Part shown: positions 35,237-46,507 of the stretch, one piece after another
Position numbering within the stretch: position 1 is the stretch's first letter
Layout: the number at the start of each line of letters is the position of its first letter
Assembly: GCA_963737125.1 (NCBI GenBank)
Contig: CAVTRL010000001.1
Coordinates: 1,758,355 to 1,822,354, forward strand
DNA: 64,000 nt
Origin: an uncultured Chloroflexia bacterium
GTDB lineage: Bacteria > Chloroflexota > UBA5177
Direction: 5' to 3'
The notes under the pieces: generated by a model
Database searches by the model: none
The model's input: the letters and a program-made list of their open reading frames with translations, nothing else
Told to the model about the DNA's origin: nothing
Made by a program: the position numbers and the translations under genes

Positions 35237-36220
35237 ATGGCGACGCCGAGCACAGATGTGCTGGTCGATGGTTTACGGCGGCGCAACCGGAGAGCTGCCG
35301 GAAGGCTCATCAGCCTGATTGAGGATCAGTCCGCCGAGGTAGAAGCGGTGATGCGGGAGGTGTACCCATACACCGGCAAGGCGTATTTCATCGGCGTCAC
35401 GGGACCGCCGGGCGCCGGAAAGAGCACGGTGGTGGACGAATTGATACGCGTGGTGCGCGAAACGGGTGACGCCATTGCGGTGGTCGCGGTGGATCCGAAC
35501 AGCCCGTTTTCGGGCGGCGCGATTCTGGGGGACCGGATCCGAATGATGCGCCACGCTTCGGATTCCGGTGTGTTCATTCGCAGCATGGGCGCACGCGGGC
35601 ATCTCGGCGGCATCGCCACGGCGACTCTGAACGCCATGTTGATCCTCGATGCCATGGGGAACGATATCGTCCTGGTGGAAACGGTGGGAGTGGGACAGTC
35701 GGAACTGGAGGTGGCGTCGACGGCCGATACCACGATCGTGATTTTGCCGCCGGGCCAGGGGGATGGTGTGCAGGCGATCAAGGCAGGCATCATGGAGATT
35801 GCAGATGTTTACGTCGTAAATAAGGCGGATCATCCCCAGACCAAGCGCACGGTGGCGGAGCTACGCGAACTGCTGAGAACCGCGCCCGTGCAACCGCCAT
35901 GGGTGCCTCCCATCGTGGAAACCATCGGCACACAGAACGCCGGTATTGAAGACCTGTGGGAGGCGATTACCAAGCATCGTGACTACCTGGAGCGAAGCGG
36001 AGAGCTCGAGCAGCGACGGACTGACCGGATCGAGCGCGAGATAGTGGACATCGTGGAAAGGCGTCTGAGATCGGAATTTTTGCTACCACAGCTCCAAACT
36101 GAGGAATTTACCAGCATGGTTCAGCAGGCAGCACGCCGGGAGTTGAGCCCCTACGAGGTGGCGGAACGTCTGTTACCCGCAGACCGACTACCGAGAAAGC
36201 AGGCATCGATTGGACGATAA
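35237..36220 (+). CDS. meaB: MeaB/ArgK-family G-protein chaperone for B12-dependent acyl-CoA mutase
   Basis: P-loop ..[12 protein letters not shown].., ..[10 protein letters not shown].., ..VVNKADH..; start set at MATPSTD within track ORF 35147..36220. Confidence 0.85.
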
Positions 36221-37863
36221 CGCAGGTCTCGAGGCCGAGTTCCAGGCATGGCGCGAGCATCGGTACGGGAAGGATCGCGCCGTTTCATTCACGACTCTTT
36301 CCGATCACGGCATCAAGCCGCTGTATTCGCCGCTCGACACGCCGCCCGCGAGCTTTGAGGCCAAGGTCGGCTGGCCTGCCCAGTACCCGTATACGCGTGG
36401 CATCTACGGAAATATGTATCGCGGCCGTCTCTGGACCATGCGTCAGTTTGCCGGGTTCGGCACAGCTCGGGATACAAACGAGCGGTTTCACTACTTGCTT
36501 GAGCACGGCATGACCGGCCTCTCGGTGGCCTTCGATAATCCCACTCTGATGGGAATCGACTCGGACGATCCGCGCGCGCTGGGAGAGGTGGGACGGACCG
36601 GCGTCGCGATGGATTCGCTGGCCGACATGGAAGTGCTGTTCGAAGGGATTCCACTGGATCGGGTCAGCACCTCGATGACCATCAACGCTCCGGCCGCTGT
36701 TCTGCTGGCAATGTACGTCGCCGTAGGGGAGAAACAGGGCGTTCCGAGCGTTCAACTCACGGGGACGCTACAGAACGACATTTTGAAGGAGTACATCGCC
36801 CAGAAGGAATGGATTTATCCCCCGGCAGCGGGCGTCAAACTGATCGTCGATACGGTTGAATTTGCGATGGAGCACATGCCAAAGTACAACCCGATCAGCA
36901 TCAGCGGCTATCACATTCGCGAAGCGGGCGCGACTGCCGTACAGGAACTGGCTTTCACGATTGCCGACGGCGTGACCTACGTAGAAGCATGCATTGCGAG
37001 GGGCCTGGAGGTGGATGCTTTCGCACCGCGACTCTCGTTCTTCTGGAACTCGCACATCGATTTCTTCGAGGAAATTGCGAAGTTTCGCGCGGCGCGACGC
37101 ATGTGGGCGTCGATCATGCGGGATACGTTCGGAGCGAGGGATCCGAAATCGTGGCTGATGCGTTTCCACACGCAGACGGCGGGAGTGTCGCTCACGGCCC
37201 AGCAGCCCGAGAACAACATCGTGCGGACCGCTCTGGAGGCGATGGCGGCGGTGCTGGGCGGCACGCAGTCGCTCCACACCAACTCGATGGACGAGGTGCT
37301 TGCTTTACCGACCGAGAAGGCGGTTGAAATTGCGCTCCGGACGCAGCAGATCATCGCCCACGAGACCGGCGTGGTGAACACGGTGGACCCACTCGGCGGA
37401 TCGTACTTCGTGGAGGCGCTGACAGACGAATGGAGGCCGGCGCACGCCAATACTTCGCGACGGATCGAGGAGTTGGGCGGCGTGCTGGCAGGGATCGAGG
37501 CCGGATTCTTCCAGCGAGAGATCGGCGAGTCGGCGTTCCACTATCAGCGGCAACTGGAACGCGGCGAGAAGGTGATGGTGGGAGTCAATCAATTCGTGAC
37601 GGACGCGCCGATCGATATTCCCGATACTCAGTATCGATCCCGAGGTGGAACGATCGCAGGTGGCGCGCGTGCTGGAACTCAAAAAAGCCCGGACGGAAAA
37701 CCGCGTACACGACGCGCTGGCGCGGGTAAAACTGGCCGCGGCGGACGGCCGGAACGTCATGCCATCGCTGCTGGCGGCCGTACGCGAGTACGCGACCATT
37801 GGAGAAATGTCGGAAGCAATGAAGGTTGAGTTCGGAAGTTATCGAGAGCCCGCTCTGGTGTAA
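36210..37863 (+). CDS. B12-dependent acyl-CoA mutase, large (substrate-binding) subunit; ICM-like signature; frameshift near 37625
   Basis: ..[18 protein letters not shown].. and ..[16 protein letters not shown].. plus ..[14 protein letters not shown]..; C-terminal 72 aa in a second frame (track ORF 37645..37863). Confidence 0.8.
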
Positions 37864-38705: not shown

Positions 38706-38793
38706 TGGTGCGCCCGACTGGACTCGAACCAGCACTCCCTTAACGGGAACTAGGCCCTCAACCTAGCGCGTCTACCTGTTCCGCCACGGGCGC
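38706..38793 (-). tRNA. tRNA-Leu (anticodon GAG)
   Basis: Reverse complement folds as a class II tRNA: acceptor GCGCCCG/CGGGCGC, anticodon stem CTAGG/CCTAG with loop TTGAGGG, long variable arm (tcccgttaaggga), T-loop TTCGAGT, encoded CCA. Confidence 0.8.
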
Positions 38794-38891: not shown

Positions 38892-39435
38892 ATGGCACGG
38901 GTAACGACCGGTACGGGAGACGAAGGCTGGACCGATCTGCTCGGCTCGGAACGCGTGCCCAAGTACCATCCCCGTCCGGAAACGTTCGGAACGGTCGACG
39001 AGGCGACGTCCGCGCTGGGGCTAGCCCGGGCGCATCTCGAACGATGCGGCGCTCAAAGATCAGATTTACCGGCTCCAGCAGGATCTATACGTGCTGATGG
39101 CGGAGCTCGCGACGCCTGCCGAGAACTACGCCAAAGTCGACTTCAAAATTCGATCGGAACACGTGGAGCGCCTCGAAAAGGAAAGCGAAGTGCTCAAAGC
39201 GGAAGTCGAAATCGGAAAGGTATTCGTGGTGCCGGGGGCGACGGTGGCGGGAGCCGCGCTGGACGTGGCACGCACGGTGGTTCGCCGCGCTGAGCGCCAG
39301 GTGGCCCGGCTTTATCACGAAGGCGACATAACGAACGCATTCGCGCTGCGCTATCTGAACCGACTGTCGGATCTGTTATTCATCATGGCGAGGTACGAGG
39401 AAGCTACGACCAGGGAGCCGCCGGACGACAACTAG
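38892..39435 (+). CDS. PduO-type ATP:cob(I)alamin adenosyltransferase (frameshift near 39050)
   Basis: MARVTTGTGDEGWTDLLGSERVPK.. N-terminus and ..DLYVLMAELATP.. C-terminal half in two frames; stop codon TAG (39433-39435) abuts the inverted repeat. Confidence 0.7.
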
Positions 39436-39451
39436 TGGGTCACTTGTGTTG
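39432..39451. repeat. left terminal inverted repeat (with flanking C-TA)
   Basis: ctagtgggtcacttgtgttg, perfect reverse complement of 45449-45468. Confidence 0.8.
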
Positions 39452-39543
39452 GTCAAAGCCACTGGTTCGTGCTGCTCGTCGTCTCCGGGGTGACCCCTTC
39501 AAGGCGCCACGAGGGAATGGCTCTGGCCGACCCCCTTGACCCA

Positions 39544-40002
39544 CTAAGAGCGACTCGTGGTCAGCGGAAGCCCAAGCAGGAGAATAGCCCGTGCAACCAG
39601 CACCCCTGCTCCCACCGCCACGAGCGCCATGAGGCCATGCAGCACCTCCTCCAGCACCACGGGACCCGGCGAAGTATTAGTGTAAAAACTCTGAAAGCCA
39701 ATGGCGACGAGGCTGAGAAAGAGGACGACTTCACCAGCGAGAGCCAGGGCAGCATACTGTAGGGATTGAAGAGCGCCGCGGTGGTACCTCTGCGGCCGAA
39801 GGAACGCCAGCCAGATGATGCCTCGCTCGGAGGCAACGACAAGAAGACTGAGGGCCACGATGCCGACGATCACCGCCACTCCACATTGAAAAGTCCCCAG
39901 CCCGACACTAATTGGGAGGCCGCTCGGACGGTGAAGGAAGGGTGTGCTGGTGGCTATCCCAGCCAGAACCGCAAGGCCGCCAAGGACGCAGAACGTTTTC
40001 AC
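39544..40002 (-). CDS. hypothetical polytopic membrane protein (family A, copy 1)
   Basis: 152 aa, about 4 TM helices; N-terminal 60 aa clearly paralogous to ORF 42717..43436 (..LAVLAGI(A/G)(T/A)STPFL(H/Q)RP..GTFQ..). Confidence 0.5.
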   Translation of the reverse strand: MKTFCVLGGLAVLAGIATSTPFLHRPSGLPISVGLGTFQCGVAVIVGIVALSLLVVASERGIIWLAFLRPQRYHRGALQSLQYAALALAGEVVLFLSLVAIGFQSFYTNTSPGPVVLEEVLHGLMALVAVGAGVLVARAILLLGLPLTTSRS

Positions 40003-40020
40003 AGCATGTCCGCCTTCAGG

Positions 40021-40548
40021 TCACGGCAGTTGCACGGTACCCCGAAATGTCACCGTTACGGGTCCAGGTGGAGCGTGCTGCCCGTGCACGAATTGCTCCG
40101 TGTACGTTCCGCGCCCACGAGCATGTGCGAACCGCCCCGTGCCCCCGGTAATCGTGAACGTCCCAACCTGGGCAGGTGTACCTGGAGGGACTGGACGGAA
40201 GCAGGCAGAGAACGTGGAGCGGTACGTCAGGCTGTTACCTCCGGCGCCACGAAGCCGCCCCGGTCCTTTCATCGGAATACAGCCGCTCGGATTGGGAACG
40301 CCGACGCTGTGGGAGCGGAGAGTGCTGCGACCGAGGATGGTTGCCGTTCCGCTCGCAACAACCGCCTCCCGCAACTGGTGCGCGTCCGGAAGGTGAGACA
40401 TCCCGTGATAGGTGGCACGAAAGGCTATACGACCGAACAGGCCGCTGGCATGGGTACCAGGAACGGGTGATGAGAGTGCCGCGCACGCTGCAGCAGCAAC
40501 AGCCAACCATGAGAATCGTTGCATCATGTCATCGGACCTCCCTTTCAC
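40021..40548 (-). CDS. hypothetical secreted protein
   Basis: 175 aa; predicted signal peptide (..MMQRFSWLAVAAAACAALSSP..), Gly/Thr-rich beta-like remainder. Confidence 0.45.
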   Translation of the reverse strand: MKGRSDDMMQRFSWLAVAAAACAALSSPVPGTHASGLFGRIAFRATYHGMSHLPDAHQLREAVVASGTATILGRSTLRSHSVGVPNPSGCIPMKGPGRLRGAGGNSLTYRSTFSACFRPVPPGTPAQVGTFTITGGTGRFAHARGRGTYTEQFVHGQHAPPGPVTVTFRGTVQLP

Positions 40549-41987
40549 CGTACCCCGTCAATTCGGACGCTGAAGTCGGCGCAGTGTGCCGAAACGATGT
40601 CTACGCGCAGCCTGCCTTTGATCCGCACCGTGGTATAAAACTCCCCCGGTCCCGGCATCAGACCGCGAACAGGAACTGCCACGCGCTTCGCGGCCGCGGT
40701 CTGCACGGCGATGCGCACGCCGGTCACACCGGGACACGGAGGTGCATCGGGATACACGCCCGCCGTTACCTGCCACGGTCCGGTCGCGGTAAACCACGGG
40801 GAATACGTATGGAGCTGCGGTCTGGCGTTGTACGTGCCGGAGAAGAAGATCGCCGGGACCACGTCATGCCACGTCTTGCCGCTGTCGCTGCTGCGCACCA
40901 ACCGGCGCAATCTGCCTGCGGCGTAGCAGGTAGAGGCGCTGGGGCACGCGATGGCAGTAAGGGGAGACGCGCCCGGGAGGTTCACCACCCTCCAGCTCTT
41001 CCCTCCATCGGTCGTCCTGGCGGTGGTTCCTGCCCTGCCCAGGGCAATGCAGGTGGTCGGCGTGGGACAGGAAAGGGCACCCATGCCCGGGGTCAGCACG
41101 TGGTTGGCTCCTGGACCCGGTCCTCCAGCCACGGCGCCGAGTCCGGGGATCAAGTGGCGCTTCCAGGTGCGGAACCCGTCCTGGGTGGTAACGGCCACTG
41201 CGTGGTACACGCCGCCATGGTAGTAGCTCGCCCCGGCGAAACAGATGCGCTGCGTTGGACAGGCGATCGCGTGGAACTCGTAGCACGCTAAGGGGGAACA
41301 CGCCGCTCCGCCAACATGGCTGATGAGCCACCGTTTCGCGCCGCCCGTGCTCCGTCCAATTACGTTGTAGCCACCCGCGTAACAGACCGTGGCGCTGGGG
41401 CAGGAGAGCGGCACTGATACACCGCCGCCAAAATCACGCGTCAGCGCTCCCGTGCTCCTCCAGCTCCTGCCGCCATCCATGGTCCGGATGACTTCGTCCC
41501 CCGAGGGGGGCCGAAAGAGCTGAACCGAGCAAGTAGACCCATTTACGCAGGCAAGTCCGGGGAGAGCGCATCCTAGCGGGTGAGATCGTTCCGCCCAGGT
41601 GCGGCCGCCATTAGTGGTGTTCAGCACAGGAAGCGGAGAGGAGCCATTGAGGCAGCCTTCGGTGAGGGCAAAGCAGGCACTGATAGCGGGACAGGTGATC
41701 GTGGCAAGGGAACTCGGCGACCGGCTGGGCTGTGCCTGCCAGGTGGCCCCCGCGTCATGCGTACTGAGGATCGAGCCCTGACTTCCGACGACATAGCACA
41801 CGCGCACGCTGGGACACGAGATGTCTCGGAGCGTTTCCTCCGCCGTTCCCGAGGGTAGGGCGGATTGCTCAGTCGCGGGAGACGCAGCCCGCGTTGTGAA
41901 ATCAGGACTGCCGGCTCCTGCTGCGGTGAGCACGAGAGCGAGCAGGAAGGGCACGAGTACGGAATGATGCTGCCGTATATGTGTCAC
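40545..41987 (-). CDS. secreted Asp-box (BNR)-repeat beta-propeller protein with repeated CPxxxxC motifs
   Basis: About 7 repeats each with C-P-x-x-x-x-C-(Y/F)-x-x-G followed by an Asp-box-like [ST]xDxGx[ST]W (e.g. TTDGGKSWR, SSDSGKTWH); signal-peptide-like start at a GTG (..VTHIRQHHSVLVPFLLALVLTAAGAGS..). The 5' part of track ORF 40545..42509 is rejected. Confidence 0.55.
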   Translation of the reverse strand: MTHIRQHHSVLVPFLLALVLTAAGAGSPDFTTRAASPATEQSALPSGTAEETLRDISCPSVRVCYVVGSQGSILSTHDAGATWQAQPSRSPSSLATITCPAISACFALTEGCLNGSSPLPVLNTTNGGRTWAERSHPLGCALPGLACVNGSTCSVQLFRPPSGDEVIRTMDGGRSWRSTGALTRDFGGGVSVPLSCPSATVCYAGGYNVIGRSTGGAKRWLISHVGGAACSPLACYEFHAIACPTQRICFAGASYYHGGVYHAVAVTTQDGFRTWKRHLIPGLGAVAGGPGPGANHVLTPGMGALSCPTPTTCIALGRAGTTARTTDGGKSWRVVNLPGASPLTAIACPSASTCYAAGRLRRLVRSSDSGKTWHDVVPAIFFSGTYNARPQLHTYSPWFTATGPWQVTAGVYPDAPPCPGVTGVRIAVQTAAAKRVAVPVRGLMPGPGEFYTTVRIKGRLRVDIVSAHCADFSVRIDGVR

Positions 41988-41989
41988 GG

Positions 41990-42490
41990 CTATGCCGCTC
42001 GACGAGCCAGGAATAGTAGCGCGACGGGGCCCAGGATAATTCCTATGACTGCGGCGATGAGGAAGCCGAAGGCGGCCGCAGTGAGAAACGCGTATCCGGC
42101 CGTTGGGCCGGCCGTGCAGCTCGCTTTCTCGAAGCAGGGATTGGCGTAGCCGGCGGACAGTGCGGCTACGACCAGATCGACAAAGGCAAGGATACCGCCA
42201 AGGGCATAGATGATCGTAGCCTGACCGTAGATGCCGTCTCGCGCGCGAGCAGCTGAGAAGAGCAGCGCACCGCACGGTAGCAGCGCGAAGGCGAGGCTGG
42301 TGAGGAACACAGATCCGCCATATCGCTGCGCAATTGAACCGGAGAGGAGCGCGAGGGCCGAGAGGATGGCACAGAGTGGGCCGGCCAGCACGACCGCCCA
42401 CGCCACGTGTCTGCCCGCGGACATGCCCGGCTCGTCCCCTCGTATCGTCAGTTGCTGTTTCCTGTGCCGTGTTGCAGCGGTCGGTTCCAT
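41990..42490 (-). CDS. hypothetical polytopic membrane protein (family B, copy 1)
   Basis: 166 aa; shares (F/Y)ANPC(F/W)..(A/P)SCT(A/G)G loop motif and TM layout with ORF 43438..43935. Confidence 0.5.
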   Translation of the reverse strand: MEPTAATRHRKQQLTIRGDEPGMSAGRHVAWAVVLAGPLCAILSALALLSGSIAQRYGGSVFLTSLAFALLPCGALLFSAARARDGIYGQATIIYALGGILAFVDLVVAALSAGYANPCFEKASCTAGPTAGYAFLTAAAFGFLIAAVIGIILGPVALLFLARRAA

Positions 42491-42716
42491 GAGTCCCTCC
42501 TTGCAGCACTCACTCTATGCCTGTCCTGCACAGAACGCGTGAGGATGACTACCGATGGTCTCTTGGGGAGAATCACGTAGGTGGACAGCCGGGTACCGCG
42601 ACCGAGGGGACAGCGCAGATATGTTTGCTCGGACGATTCCGTATACCTGGCCGATCTAGGCCCACCGAAAAGGTAGCGCATCACCGTCTCAATCATCGAC
42701 CGTTTGTGCTCCAGAG

Positions 42717-43436
42717 CTAGCGTCCAACCAAGAACGGATAGAGTTCGGCCCTGTGCTTCCACCGCCCCACCAGCACGTAGGAGCCGGAGGATGGGAAGAA
42801 GAGATAGCCGCAATAGAACAGGAATCGCCTGGCGTTCTTGTCGCGCCTATATGCATCCGACATGGGATCCAAGCGCAGAACCGGGCCAGCGGTCTGCGGA
42901 CTGTCTCCAAACATAACCGCCTTACCCGATGCGAGGTTCCATCCACGCACCGTGATAACGTCTGTGAGCGCGGGGCCTGCCGCCGAGACAGCCTTTTGGT
43001 ACGGGGCACGCGGCCTGGTCCTCGTGTGGAGGATCCCGTCCACTGTGGACGGATTGACCCACAGCGGAGCTCGACCAAACGCGTGGTGAAAGGCCCCGGC
43101 GAGTCGCTGCATTGGAGCTCGGGGTGGGCAATTCTTCGGCACCGGCCCGTAGTGGGGGGACGGCTTGTTAGCGCTGACCATTGCGGCGCCGGCCGGCCAG
43201 AGTACGCCAGCCGCAGACGCCACGGCCAGGAGAGCCAGCATCACCATCCCGTCTGCCGCCGCCACCACCACTTGAAAGGTCCCCGGTCCGACACTCGATG
43301 AGAGGCTGGTCGGACGTTGAAGGAACGGCGTGCTGGCACCTATCCCCGCCAGAACCGCAAGGGCACCAATGACCAGGAACGACTTCACGGACAACTGCTG
43401 TATCCGCGGCGACCCTTTGGGCATCTCCCCAGACAT
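42717..43436 (-). CDS. hypothetical membrane protein (family A, copy 2) with divergent C-terminal region
   Basis: 239 aa; N-terminus paralogous to 39544..40002; C-terminal half unlike copy 1 and may be partly non-coding read-through. Confidence 0.4.
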   Translation of the reverse strand: MSGEMPKGSPRIQQLSVKSFLVIGALAVLAGIGASTPFLQRPTSLSSSVGPGTFQVVVAAADGMVMLALLAVASAAGVLWPAGAAMVSANKPSPHYGPVPKNCPPRAPMQRLAGAFHHAFGRAPLWVNPSTVDGILHTRTRPRAPYQKAVSAAGPALTDVITVRGWNLASGKAVMFGDSPQTAGPVLRLDPMSDAYRRDKNARRFLFYCGYLFFPSSGSYVLVGRWKHRAELYPFLVGR

Positions 43437-43437
43437 G

Positions 43438-43935
43438 TCAGGGCCCGTGCCCGCTCACAATGTGCTCAGTCGATCGTCGTGCCGCGCGAAGGAGCAGGGG
43501 CGAAAGAAGCAGAGCAACGGCTGCGGCCAGCAGCAAGACGAGTAGCGCAGCCTTGAGGATGCTGTCCTCGAGGGATGACCCGCCCGTACAGCTTGGGTTG
43601 TCCCAGCAGGGGTTGGCGAAGACCCTGAACAGGGCGACCGCTCCGATGCCGGGCAGAAGAACCACCCCTCCTGCAAGAGACGCGCTCCTGGCTGCAGGCA
43701 GATCCGCCCGGCGCGCCAATTTCGCTGCCCGGAGGAGCATCTGGCAGGGGACCATCCCAAGGCCGACTACCCCAACCACGATGGCTATTTGTACGCCGAT
43801 GGGGAAGCGCAATACTCTGTCGTCGTACAGAGCTGTGCCAAGGACGACGGCACACACTCCGAGGGCAGCGAGCACCGCACCGGCGACTGCTGCGAGGTAG
43901 GCCATCCATTGTGAGATCGGAGCGGAGCGGGTCAT
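43438..43935 (-). CDS. hypothetical polytopic membrane protein (family B, copy 2)
   Basis: 165 aa; ..FANPCWDNPSCTGG.. motif paralogous to 41990..42490. Confidence 0.5.
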   Translation of the reverse strand: MTRSAPISQWMAYLAAVAGAVLAALGVCAVVLGTALYDDRVLRFPIGVQIAIVVGVVGLGMVPCQMLLRAAKLARRADLPAARSASLAGGVVLLPGIGAVALFRVFANPCWDNPSCTGGSSLEDSILKAALLVLLLAAAVALLLSPLLLRAARRSTEHIVSGHGP

Positions 43936-44063
43936 CTCGGTGCCTCGATAGCTCGACTTTATACCGGCGCAGAGGGGAAGACATCCGTAAGACCACGGAA
44001 GATCTCGTCCTCAGCCGAAGAGATGGGGAGCGGCCCCGCCAGCCGGCTGCGCTCGACTCCTGG

Positions 44064-44089
44064 CGGGTCACGTGTATTGGTCACAACCC
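44064..44089. repeat. internal degenerate copy of the left terminal repeat
   Basis: gcgggtcacgtgtattggtcacaacc vs left end gtgggtcacttgtgttggtcaaagcc: 21/26 identical, same orientation as the left end, no TA flank. Confidence 0.55.
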
Positions 44090-44094
44090 TTGTC

Positions 44095-45421
44095 TCAGGC
44101 TGCCCGTCGGCGGTGGAGTGGCCGCCGGGTATAGGCACCTGAGCCACCGAGGGCATGACGTCGCTCCCGTGCTCGCTGGCGTCGGGCCTGCCGTTTCCCA
44201 CCCCACTCGAAGGGCGTCGGCTCTCGGTTCCAGGCACGGGCTGTTGCCTCCAGCCAGTCGATGATCTCCTCGGGCGTCTTGGGATGGGCGCCGTCGAGTG
44301 CGCGCCGCTTGAGGATGCGCTGAATCGACTCGCACATATTGAGGTACGAGCCGCCCAGCGGGGTGAAGAGGGGCATGATCCCGTGGTGGAAGAGCCACAG
44401 GATGAGATCGACGGTGTAGTGCCCGGTGAGGTTATCCCAGACCAGGAGCATGCGGAGCGGTGGGAGGTCCTGAGGAAGGGTGGTGCGGATCGTCAGCCCC
44501 TCTTGCCAGCGCTGCCAGCACCGTCGGTTCTCCTCCGGCGGGAGGGCGTCCGGCTTAGGCAGGGTTGCCAGGATGGCCAGCAACTCCGCTTCGAGCCAGG
44601 GATGCAGGATGGCATTAGCACCGCTTCGCACCCCTTTCACCCGCACGTGCCCAGTGGCGGGATGGAAGAGCGTCAACTGCTTGGCCGTGCCTTCCCGGAC
44701 ATACTCATGGGGATAGCGAACCGGCTCTCCAGCCGGATGCCAGTGGGAGCCGGGATAGGGGAGCGTCCCATACGGACCCGCCTCGTCTTCTGCCCAGACC
44801 GGCGGGAGGGACTGGGTATATGCCGCCTGGATCAACTTTTTTTCGCTGCGGCATCGGGATCGACGACCGTCACGGTTCCACTTTTCCGCTTCCTGACCAC
44901 GGTCCCTGTCTCGCACCAACTCTGATCCTTGGTCCAGACAAAGCCGGCATCGTGCAAGACGCACCAGATGGTGTAGGTGCTGATCCCGGGCAGGCCATCC
45001 GGCGCGCGCGTCGCAGCGTGGTGAGTGACCACGTCGCCGTGCCATCCGTGTTCCGATCCGGTGTGCGCCGCACCTCCCGCAGAATCCGCTCTTGCTCGGT
45101 CTCGGTGTAGCGCTTCGGCTGCCCACCACCATGATGCTCGACCAGCGCGTCGATCCCGTCCCGGTTGAACCGGGTCACCAGATGGGCAACGGCATCGCCA
45201 CTCTTGCGACCGGCACGGCGTGCTGCGCTCTCGAAGCTTGCGCCATCCGCGACCGCGAGGAGTTCCTTGGCTCGCACCACCTGAGCGGCGGGATCGGTGC
45301 GCGATCGACTCACTAGTTCAAGGTGGAGGCGTTCGTTGGGCGTAAGGGGACGCAAGGGATCTTTCTGGCGAGCCGGCATGGCAGACTCCGGGGAAGGCGA
45401 GGCGGCGAATACCTGCCACAA
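44095..45421 (-). CDS. IS630/Tc1-family DDE transposase, split over three reading frames
   Basis: N-terminal HTH frame (track ORF 44870..45421), middle frame (44832..45032: ..[31 protein letters not shown]), DDE_3 frame (44095..45132: ..LVWDNLTGH.., ..[16 protein letters not shown]..); the last switch is at an A7 tract (plus-strand T7 at 44837-44843). Confidence 0.7.
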
Positions 45422-45448
45422 GCCTACTGCCGTCGATTGGCAGTCATC

Positions 45449-45468
45449 AACACAAGTGACCCACTAGA
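45449..45468. repeat. right terminal inverted repeat (with flanking TA-G)
   Basis: caacacaagtgacccactag; its CTA (45464-45466) is the minus-strand TAG stop codon of tsaD. Confidence 0.8.
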
Positions 45469-46507
45469 ACTGCAGGGACGGGTTTATGTCGGACCGGTCC
45501 CAGGCATCGGGCTCATAGTGGGCGGCGGCGGCGATCATGGCAGCGTTGTCGGTTGCCAGGTCCGGCCGGGCGACGTAGACCGGCAGATTGCTCTCGGCGT
45601 GCATTCTCGCGCGTAAGGCCGCATTCGCGGCGACTCCTCCGACGACCGCGATCGACGCGACACCCAACGCGCCAGATGCCGCGATCGTCTTCTTCACCAG
45701 GACGTCGACCACGCTGTCCTGGAAGGCACCGGCTATGCCGGCAACCACTGCCTGGTCGAGAGGCTCACCGGTCTTTGCCGGTGGATCGACGCCAGGCGCG
45801 TTGCCGGCGGGCGCAACTTCGCCGTGAGCGGCTCGGACAGCGTGTAAAACCGCCGTTTTCAAGCCGCTGAAGCTGAAGTCGTAGGTGCCGGGCAGCCAGG
45901 CGCGGGGAAGAGCAGTGCCGGCCGTGGAGGCGGCGGCACGCTGAATTGCCGGGCCGCCCGGGTAGGACAGTCCCAGGAGGCGTGCAACCTTGTCGAACGC
46001 TTCGCCGGCCGCGTCGTCCAGAGTTCGGCCCACGACCTGGTACGATCCGTGGTCACGAATCAACACCAATTCGGTGTGCCCACCGGACACGATGAGGGCG
46101 AGCATCGGCAGCAGCGGGGGTGGGGGCGCCGGATCCTGGGTTGAGAGCCAGACGGAGTATACGTGCCCATGAAGGTGATTGACGCCCGCAAACGGCAGTG
46201 ACCGGGCAAACGCCAGAGCGCGAGCAAAGTTGAAGCCCACAAGAAGCGAGCCGGCGAGGCCGGGGCCACGGGTGGCTGCCACGCCTTCAATGTCTCCGAG
46301 TGAGATTCCTGCCTGGTCGAGCGCGAGCTCGGCCACGGCGACGATCGACGTGACGTGCTGCCGGCTTGCTATCTCAGGGACGACTCCGCCGTAGGGGGCA
46401 TGAATGGCGATCTGCGACGAAACAACGTTAGAAAGTATGTGCCGACCGTCGCGGACTACCGCAACGCTGGTTTCGTCGCAGGACGTTTCGACGGCGAGTA
46501 TTAGCAT
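45464..46507 (-). CDS. tsaD: tRNA N6-adenosine threonylcarbamoyltransferase
   Basis: 347 aa; MLILAVETSCDETSVAVV.. and ..HLHGHVYS.. Kae1/TsaD signatures. Confidence 0.9.
   Translation of the reverse strand: MLILAVETSCDETSVAVVRDGRHILSNVVSSQIAIHAPYGGVVPEIASRQHVTSIVAVAELALDQAGISLGDIEGVAATRGPGLAGSLLVGFNFARALAFARSLPFAGVNHLHGHVYSVWLSTQDPAPPPPLLPMLALIVSGGHTELVLIRDHGSYQVVGRTLDDAAGEAFDKVARLLGLSYPGGPAIQRAAASTAGTALPRAWLPGTYDFSFSGLKTAVLHAVRAAHGEVAPAGNAPGVDPPAKTGEPLDQAVVAGIAGAFQDSVVDVLVKKTIAASGALGVASIAVVGGVAANAALRARMHAESNLPVYVARPDLATDNAAMIAAAAHYEPDAWDRSDINPSLQF

Follow-up and report, generated by a model that had tools for sequence, protein, structure and literature searches.

In a stretch of 64,000 nucleotides from an uncultured Chloroflexia bacterium (contig CAVTRL010000001.1; hereafter the window, numbered from its first letter), we analyzed a block of 6,036 bp (39432-45467) lying between the genes of a PduO-type cobalamin adenosyltransferase and of TsaD. 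The block is probably a now-defective composite transposon of the IS630 family of insertion sequences (IS), made of a miniature inverted-repeat transposable element (MITE), a cargo and an IS, and inserted as one unit into a CTAG common to two convergent stop codons. An earlier note, written from the letters of this DNA, had described a single 6-kb composite element here. The IS630-type unit with cargo is supported by our results, while its structure had to be refined to a MITE, the cargo and a defective canonical IS; a third terminal copy, a degenerate fourth end and the frame breaks in the transposase gene had been missed. The features that build the block, apart from the cargo, are the following:

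39433-39434: left TA target-site duplication; C39432 and G39435 complete a CTAG, and the TAG at 39433-39435 is the stop codon of PduO
39433-39546, + strand: MITE of the same IS630 subfamily, 114 bp, with 110 bp between its two TA
44061-44090, + strand: degenerate transposase-distal inverted repeat of the IS, TGGCGGGTCACGTGTATTGG against the consensus TAGTGGGTCACTTGTGTTGG, with the TA and the tip T mutated (44062, 44064)
44095-45379, - strand: IS630-family transposase gene, with coding spread over three frames; orfA start at 45379, orfB stop at 44095-44097
44837-44843, - strand: A7 run at the orfA/orfB junction, a conserved putative -1 recoding site (ribosomal frameshift or transcriptional slippage)
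45448-45466, - strand: outer right (transposase-proximal) inverted repeat, including the right TA duplication (45465-45466); the CTA at 45464-45466 is the stop codon of tsaD

The left arm of the outer repeat is CTAGTGGGTCACTTGTGTTG on the + strand at 39432-39451, and the right arm, at 45448-45467, is its exact reverse complement. The perfect 20-bp inverted repeat reported earlier is real, although its right arm had been placed one base too far to the right (45449-45468). It can be extended to 30 nt with 87% complementarity. The 19-mer TAGTGGGTCACTTGTGTTG, which is CTAGTGGGTCACTTGTGTTG minus its leading C, occurs twice in the 64 kb even when three mismatches are permitted, with 0.01 occurrences expected by chance and two or more copies in none of 100 shuffles of the window. 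From TA to TA, the element proper measures 6,030 bp (39435-45464). A third terminal copy, TAGTGGGTCA, lies on the - strand at 39537-39546, and the fourth end, at 44061-44090, is degenerate. The order of the block is TA, MITE, TA, 4.5 kb of cargo, T(G), dead distal end, transposase, good proximal end and TA. As in a composite transposon, the IS-derived outer ends lie in inverted orientation (39433-39451 and 45448-45466), enclose six passenger genes and are themselves flanked by TA/TA; the block departs from a composite with two complete IS arms in that its left arm is a non-coding MITE of 114 bp. We also considered a one-piece long IS (tIS), with the passengers in a single inverted-repeat pair, and rejected it on account of the inner ends at 44061-44090 and 39537-39546.

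The right arm is a resident IS of 1,406 bp (44061-45466), collinear from tip to tip with eight canonical copies of 1.40-1.43 kb in an end-to-end alignment. Its assignment to IS630, already proposed in the earlier note, rests on helix-turn-helix and DDE matches of the transposase, most of them below cutoff, on an invariant DD35E triad and on the TA/CTAG target. The orfA helix-turn-helix scored 31.6 bits with Pfam HTH_29 (cutoff 28.1) and 33.3 bits with HTH_32 (cutoff 33.7), and window orfB gave 21.5 bits with Pfam DDE_3 (cutoff 28.6). NCBIfam NF033545 (transpos_IS630) matched with E=4.7e-26 and 91.9 bits, below its cutoff of 100. PF13358 is present in the precomputed annotation of most transposase homologs, and D202, D319 and E354 are shared by all 20 clade members that were aligned. 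Neither the transposase sequence nor a profile of 20 members gave a match in sequence searches of the PDB, the solved Tc1/mariner structures included. The transposase belongs to a divergent, Chloroflexi-type clade of larger proteins (431 aa).

Two kinds of frame change are found in this gene. Of the 21 canonical metagenome copies among the matches listed, 17 have the A7 run at this position, and two more have A6 or A8 there. With the window IS included, the A-run lies at around 620-640 in 19 of 22 canonical copies, tallied as A7 in 18 copies, A6 in two and A8 in one. A 0-frame TGA comes no more than two codons after it, and orfB is in the -1 frame; we read it as a programmed recoding signal and no lesion. 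The second change is a 10-nt deletion around 45005/45006, between short GCGC repeats, which breaks the frame of orfA and is unique among the aligned canonical copies. Because of this deletion, the copy is now non-autonomous. That the deletion is real is made slightly less certain by frameshifts in the adjoining genes of methylmalonyl-CoA mutase (MCM) and PduO, while the position between GCGC repeats is typical of genuine slippage. The distal tip of the IS reads GTGACCCGCCA where all other aligned copies read GTGACCCACTA; on the + strand, 44061-44064 is TGGC for TAGT. Among the matches listed for the transposase protein search, there was none from the source genome, which may have no intact copy, or may have copies annotated as pseudogenes.

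The left arm has the properties of a MITE: it is short, non-coding, foldable and flanked by TA, with terminal repeats like those of its parent. Its arms of 39 nt are 72% complementary and can form a hairpin with TA on both sides, and their tips are identical to those of the IS. The outer end spans 39433-39461 and the tip of the inner end corresponds to 39537-39546 on the - strand. This outer end is correctly oriented and identical over 20 nt to the good end of the IS, and its 29 nt match the inverted repeats of the closest IS relatives (loci L124-L128) in 28 positions. An attempt to orient the MITE from proximal- and distal-type ends was dropped: both of its arms are distal-like, and the close relatives share the same 29 nt at either end.

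The insertion site was reconstructed from the two flanking genes and their relatives. The flanking genes are:

38892-39435, + strand: PduO-type cobalamin adenosyltransferase, left flank; frameshift near 39041-39049, with a Cob_adeno_trans open reading frame (ORF) at 39091-39435
45464-46507, - strand: tsaD, right flank; intact, with a C-terminus of natural length

The closest relatives of this TsaD, in a collection of 5.8 billion proteins in 90%-identity clusters, are 65-70% identical. In all four readable contigs of such relatives, tsaE-tsaB-rimI-tsaD faces the genes for PduO, the B12-binding subunit, MCM and MeaB, and the space between is free of cargo; where the genes do not overlap, their stops are separated by 8, 10 or 11 bp. 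The window keeps the genes of these relatives on both sides of the block. We regard the whole block as an insertion because PduO and tsaD are directly adjacent in the four relatives. When the window flanks are joined (...GACAAC-TA-GAACTG...; reconstructed empty junctions GACAACTAGAACTGCAG and GGACGACAACTAGAACTGCAGGGAC), a CTAG appears whose TAG is the stop of PduO on one strand and that of tsaD on the other. After joining, the length of TsaD is precisely the natural one, and PduO exceeds its counterpart in two relatives by 2 aa. The earlier note had proposed that both flanking stops form the outermost bases of the element and were once a single CTAG, and the reconstruction agrees with it on both points. 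It had also named, as evidence against its own reading, relatives with the same cargo at this locus and no repeats or transposase; none of the four relatives has cargo there.

IS630 elements duplicate a TA and prefer a CTAG-type target. We searched the rebuilt transposase against a collection of genome contigs and scanned metagenomes with the terminal pattern, which gave at least 120 stretches (L004-L123). The genome contigs yielded one locus only, L001, from a Chloroflexi metagenome-assembled genome, with 69% aa identity to the rebuilt transposase and an element of 1,414 bp bounded by CTAG...CTAG. The matches listed include 21 canonical copies of 1,395-1,433 bp with inverted repeats of 20-30 nt; MITEs of 99-133 bp are abundant among them, and some measure about 400 and 640 bp. 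Tandem MITE-MITE-IS arrays, in which two different MITEs and an IS have one common TA, are frequent (L022 461-2104 and 3783-4012; L093 118-1761; L118 6244-7887). Again among the matches listed, 28 of 168 exact tips with readable flanks abut another element, and a C precedes the TA in 116 of the remaining 140 flanks (83%). Every insertion regenerates CTAG at its own ends, and these ends act as hot spots, as the 28 abutting tips indicate. The CTAG target with TA duplication that the earlier note had put forward is borne out by the window (TA/TA in C-TA-G), by L001 and by dozens of metagenome copies. Within the window, CTAG is sparse (35 sites per 64 kb), and the MITE and the IS are the only elements of the family.

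Two side observations came from this survey. Many metagenome contigs, mostly of the JAABU*/soil type, end 100-125 nt from a tip, family copies often breaking assemblies. At L032 (1283-2857), an ISL3-type transposase (525 aa) is nested in an IS630-family copy.

The cargo consists of six tightly packed genes on the - strand (39547-44060, around 4.5 kb):

39544-40002, - strand: c152, multi-span membrane protein with 4-5 hydrophobic segments; full-length member of a tiny family; ends in ...LTTSRS
40021-40548, - strand: c175, a 175-aa ORF without family match
40545-41987, - strand: BNR / Ycf48-like beta-propeller gene, with a hydrophobic stretch at the N-terminus, after a probable GTG start at 41987
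41990-42490, - strand: c166, protein with four transmembrane segments, distant paralog of c165
42717-43436, - strand: c239, a member of the c152 family in its first 81 aa only, the remainder being unrelated
43438-43935, - strand: c165, protein with four transmembrane segments

The stop codon of c152 is made of the last MITE base and the inner TA. Its family comprises 12 clusters among 1.84 billion representatives. For the propeller protein, the NCBIfam matches were Ycf48/BNR-like and only below cutoff. The first 81 residues of c239 are 83% identical to a metagenome protein (P0125) and 60% to c152, and the other 158 residues have no homolog, which suggests that c239 is a truncated or fused gene. 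None of the six proteins matched a known defence system in PADLOC. Searches with the cargo genes and the cargo DNA (tblastn and blastn) found no match in the 123-130 fetched loci and no paralog elsewhere in the window, and the search with c239 returned three partial homologs only, with no tsaD or PduO nearby. The cargo has neither terminal repeats nor an integrase or recombinase of its own. It is the strongest tetranucleotide outlier of the window, with a distance of 0.0212 vs 0.009-0.0156 for all 4.5-kb segments outside the element. This composition, together with the 83% identity of the c239 part vs 70% for the best TsaD match, points to a recent foreign origin of the cargo. A direct repeat, CGACTC[G/C]TGG, was also seen at both cargo borders (39551-39560 and 44053-44062), with a rough p of about 0.01-0.03; its right copy runs into the degenerate tip of the IS, and its left copy is followed by TCAGCGG, which is like a tip minus 3 nt.

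The closest relative found for the window IS is a cargo carrier too. The OrfB of this relative (P0178) is 88% identical to window orfB and belongs to an element of 3,667 bp (L124 123-3789; L125 1112-4778), arranged as inverted repeat, orfA, orfB, MarR, cupin, hypothetical, cupin and inverted repeat, with no recognisable distal repeat downstream of orfB. Its copies are 99.9-100% identical and have unrelated left flanks in four samples, and at L127 (113-1882) the identity runs through the IS into the cargo. It looks like an active cargo-carrying sibling. It resembles the window element in its transposase, in an inverted repeat matching in 28 of 29 positions, in a lost distal end with a surrogate end past the passengers, and in its CTAG flanks. 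However, it carries its own cargo of 2.2 kb (MarR and cupins), its transposase frames are intact, identical copies are present in several contexts, and its far end is a solo repeat of about 50 bp in place of a complete MITE. Its inner end is lost beyond recognition, whereas that of the window is still recognisable at 44061-44090.

Four further candidates in the fetched loci have a pair of family inverted repeats around other genes: a PRK-family kinase gene (L128 6666-8772), an isochorismatase-like hydrolase gene (L071 1069-3446), a TetR gene and two SnoaL-like genes with a truncated transposase (L047 3924-6628), and an EamA transporter gene with no transposase (L120 1421-3438).

According to the explanation that we prefer, a single cut-and-paste event would have brought the block into the CTAG made by the overlapping stops of PduO and tsaD, duplicating the TA. 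The IS has an intact proximal end and what appears to be a dead distal one, with TA and tip mutated. With that end dead, the nearest good left-pointing end is the outer end of the MITE, so the transposase would pair the proximal end with this surrogate, 6 kb away, and the six intervening genes, which encode membrane and other uncharacterised proteins, would be carried along. Normal expression of the transposase would require -1 recoding at the conserved A7. We infer the movement of the whole block from its anatomy, its synteny and a close precedent, and we infer likewise that the use of a surrogate end was its cause.

The target bases alone do not separate this explanation from one in which the parts arrived independently. 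Taking out the MITE and the IS one by one leaves a bare island that has TA...T(A) at its borders, within a CTAG, and therefore any model needs an IS630-type insertion of the island. It might be proposed that the cargo already stood between PduO and tsaD and that the MITE and the IS landed later on its borders, at the TAs of the stop codons, the 20-bp inverted repeat being merely the consensus end of the subfamily. Indeed, related copies (e.g., L043) have this 20-mer as the consensus of both their ends, the family targets CTAG or TA at stop codons in a genome poor in CTAG, the IS has decayed (mutated tip and 10-nt deletion), and the relatives that provide the synteny are distant. Yet this proposal leaves unexplained how an island with no integrase arrived with borders that are nucleotide-exact on the PduO and tsaD stops, and stripped of MITE and IS the island keeps an IS630-type signature. 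It also demands that the foreign c152 and the native PduO had overlapping stops, and that the sole two family elements in 64 kb sit precisely on both borders. The foreign-like composition of the cargo, the outermost position of the two good ends, the dead left-pointing end of the IS and the surrogate end used by its closest relative speak against it as well. We consider independent insertions unlikely and favour the arrival of the block as one unit.

A stepwise build-up, with MITE and IS first in tandem at the CTAG and the cargo placed between them later, would find its raw material in the frequent arrays with one TA (L022, L093 and L118, and the 28 of 168 tips abutting another element) and a possible trace in the direct repeat at both cargo borders. 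The cargo could have been brought in by a further insertion, or acquired from a MITE-cargo-IS arrangement elsewhere through gene conversion or a double crossover. Still, this route seems quite improbable to us: the recombinational version requires the same composite elsewhere, the border repeat is barely beyond chance, and the cargo lacks terminal repeats and a recombinase, for which an in-place insertion between the tandem pair was also rated low. As for a chimeric join caused by IS and MITE repeats, with the cargo not truly between PduO and tsaD, the frameshifts in MCM, PduO and the transposase suggest imperfect sequence, and copies of the family break many metagenome assemblies near their tips. 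However, both flanks are true syntenic partners and make a sensible site once joined, synteny would more probably be lost on one side in a chimera, the source contig is reported as 2.35 Mb, and the inner junction sequences are unique, so we hold an assembly artefact to be very improbable.

Several observations nonetheless weigh against the arrival of the block as one unit. No second copy of the 6-kb unit was found in the window or the fetched loci, and no cargo homolog stands beside any of about 55 transposase-bearing loci. The inner end of the MITE retains a perfect 10-nt tip, which leaves only one inner end clearly dead, and its inner flank (TA-A) is a rare target type, present in around 3% of flanks. 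We found no near-identical strain with an empty site; TsaD identity to the nearest relatives is 65-70%, and with relatives this distant, the insertion could be old or built stepwise. Finally, neighbouring genes are frameshifted too, so some of the lesions may be assembly errors.

Regarding these neighbours, the genes of MCM (36210-37863, with a frame change near 37612-37622) and PduO are each split over two frames in comparison with their homologs in L002, and no homopolymer is present at either site. This means either decay of the B12-dependent mutase pathway or indel errors in the assembly. A tRNA-Leu(GAG) is encoded on the - strand at 38706-38793, between the gene of the B12-binding subunit and PduO; the relatives have a short called ORF at this position, and the tRNA is probably conserved there.

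If the block did move as proposed, it offers a concrete route by which an element comes to pick up and transport several kilobases: after the loss of one end, a MITE in the vicinity provides another. The palindromic CTAG target would let such a unit land between convergent genes with both stops regenerated, at no cost to the host. We tentatively suggest, as a possibility that we rate below even, that this Chloroflexi clade of IS630 repeatedly becomes gene-carrying by losing its own end and recruiting a surrogate, either a MITE or a solo repeat, kilobases away. If true, bacterial Tc1/IS630 elements, usually seen as cargo-free, would be a regular vehicle for small gene clusters, and the 6-kb unit of the window would be the largest example, beside L124/L125, L128, L071, L047 and L120. 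Were it general in the clade, it would add a gene-transfer vehicle in Chloroflexi and provide a natural template for cargo-carrying Tc1/IS630 vectors.

In order to contextualize these results, we compared the block with known systems. It shares with canonical IS630/ISY100 elements a transposase with helix-turn-helix and DDE domains, short inverted repeats, the TA duplication and the CTAG-type target; those elements are 1.0-1.4 kb long and contain the transposase only, whereas the block has 6 kb, six passengers and a resident IS that lost one end. The use of frameshifts is described for the IS630 family, including a Roseiflexus element with programmed transcriptional slippage (PMC5009743). This element is likewise a Chloroflexi member of the family in which a DNA-binding orfA and a catalytic orfB are linked by recoding, but it slips on T5C5 with a nascent RNA hairpin, while in the window clade a 0-frame TGA comes after a conserved A7. 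MITE-bounded composite-like structures are known from other families, with Acinetobacter MITEs around class 1 integrons and MITE-297 around 76 kb (both cited in PMC6382973). In those structures, as in the window, a miniature non-autonomous element supplies an end and foreign genes become mobilisable in trans; there, however, each side has a MITE, the IS families are different ones and the duplications measure at least 5 bp, in contrast to one MITE plus an IS, of IS630 type, with a TA duplication.

The closest system is a 6,461-bp element of Nitrosomonas communis Nm2, Tn630-NC1, which a report of 2024 presents as the first IS630-family composite transposon (PMC11544213). The earlier note had called bacterial elements of this type with several kilobases of passengers unusual, and published IS630 composites are indeed very rare, the first having been claimed in that report. 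Both elements belong to the same family, measure about 6 kb with around 4.5 kb of cargo, have perfect outer and poorer inner ends, and contain a transposase inactivated by an indel. The arms of Tn630-NC1 are two full IS copies of 888 bp, whereas those of the window are the 114-bp MITE and the 1.4-kb IS, from a divergent 431-aa clade with an A7 site. Their cargoes also differ, with VapE, Ant and BrnTA in Tn630-NC1 and membrane proteins, a BNR propeller and an unassigned ORF in the window. In the 'asymmetric TIR' (terminal inverted repeat) model proposed for Tn630-NC1, intact ends become the outer ones and degenerate ends the inner ones (PMC11544213). Since the model predicts intact outer and degenerate inner ends, the element of the window fits its logic.

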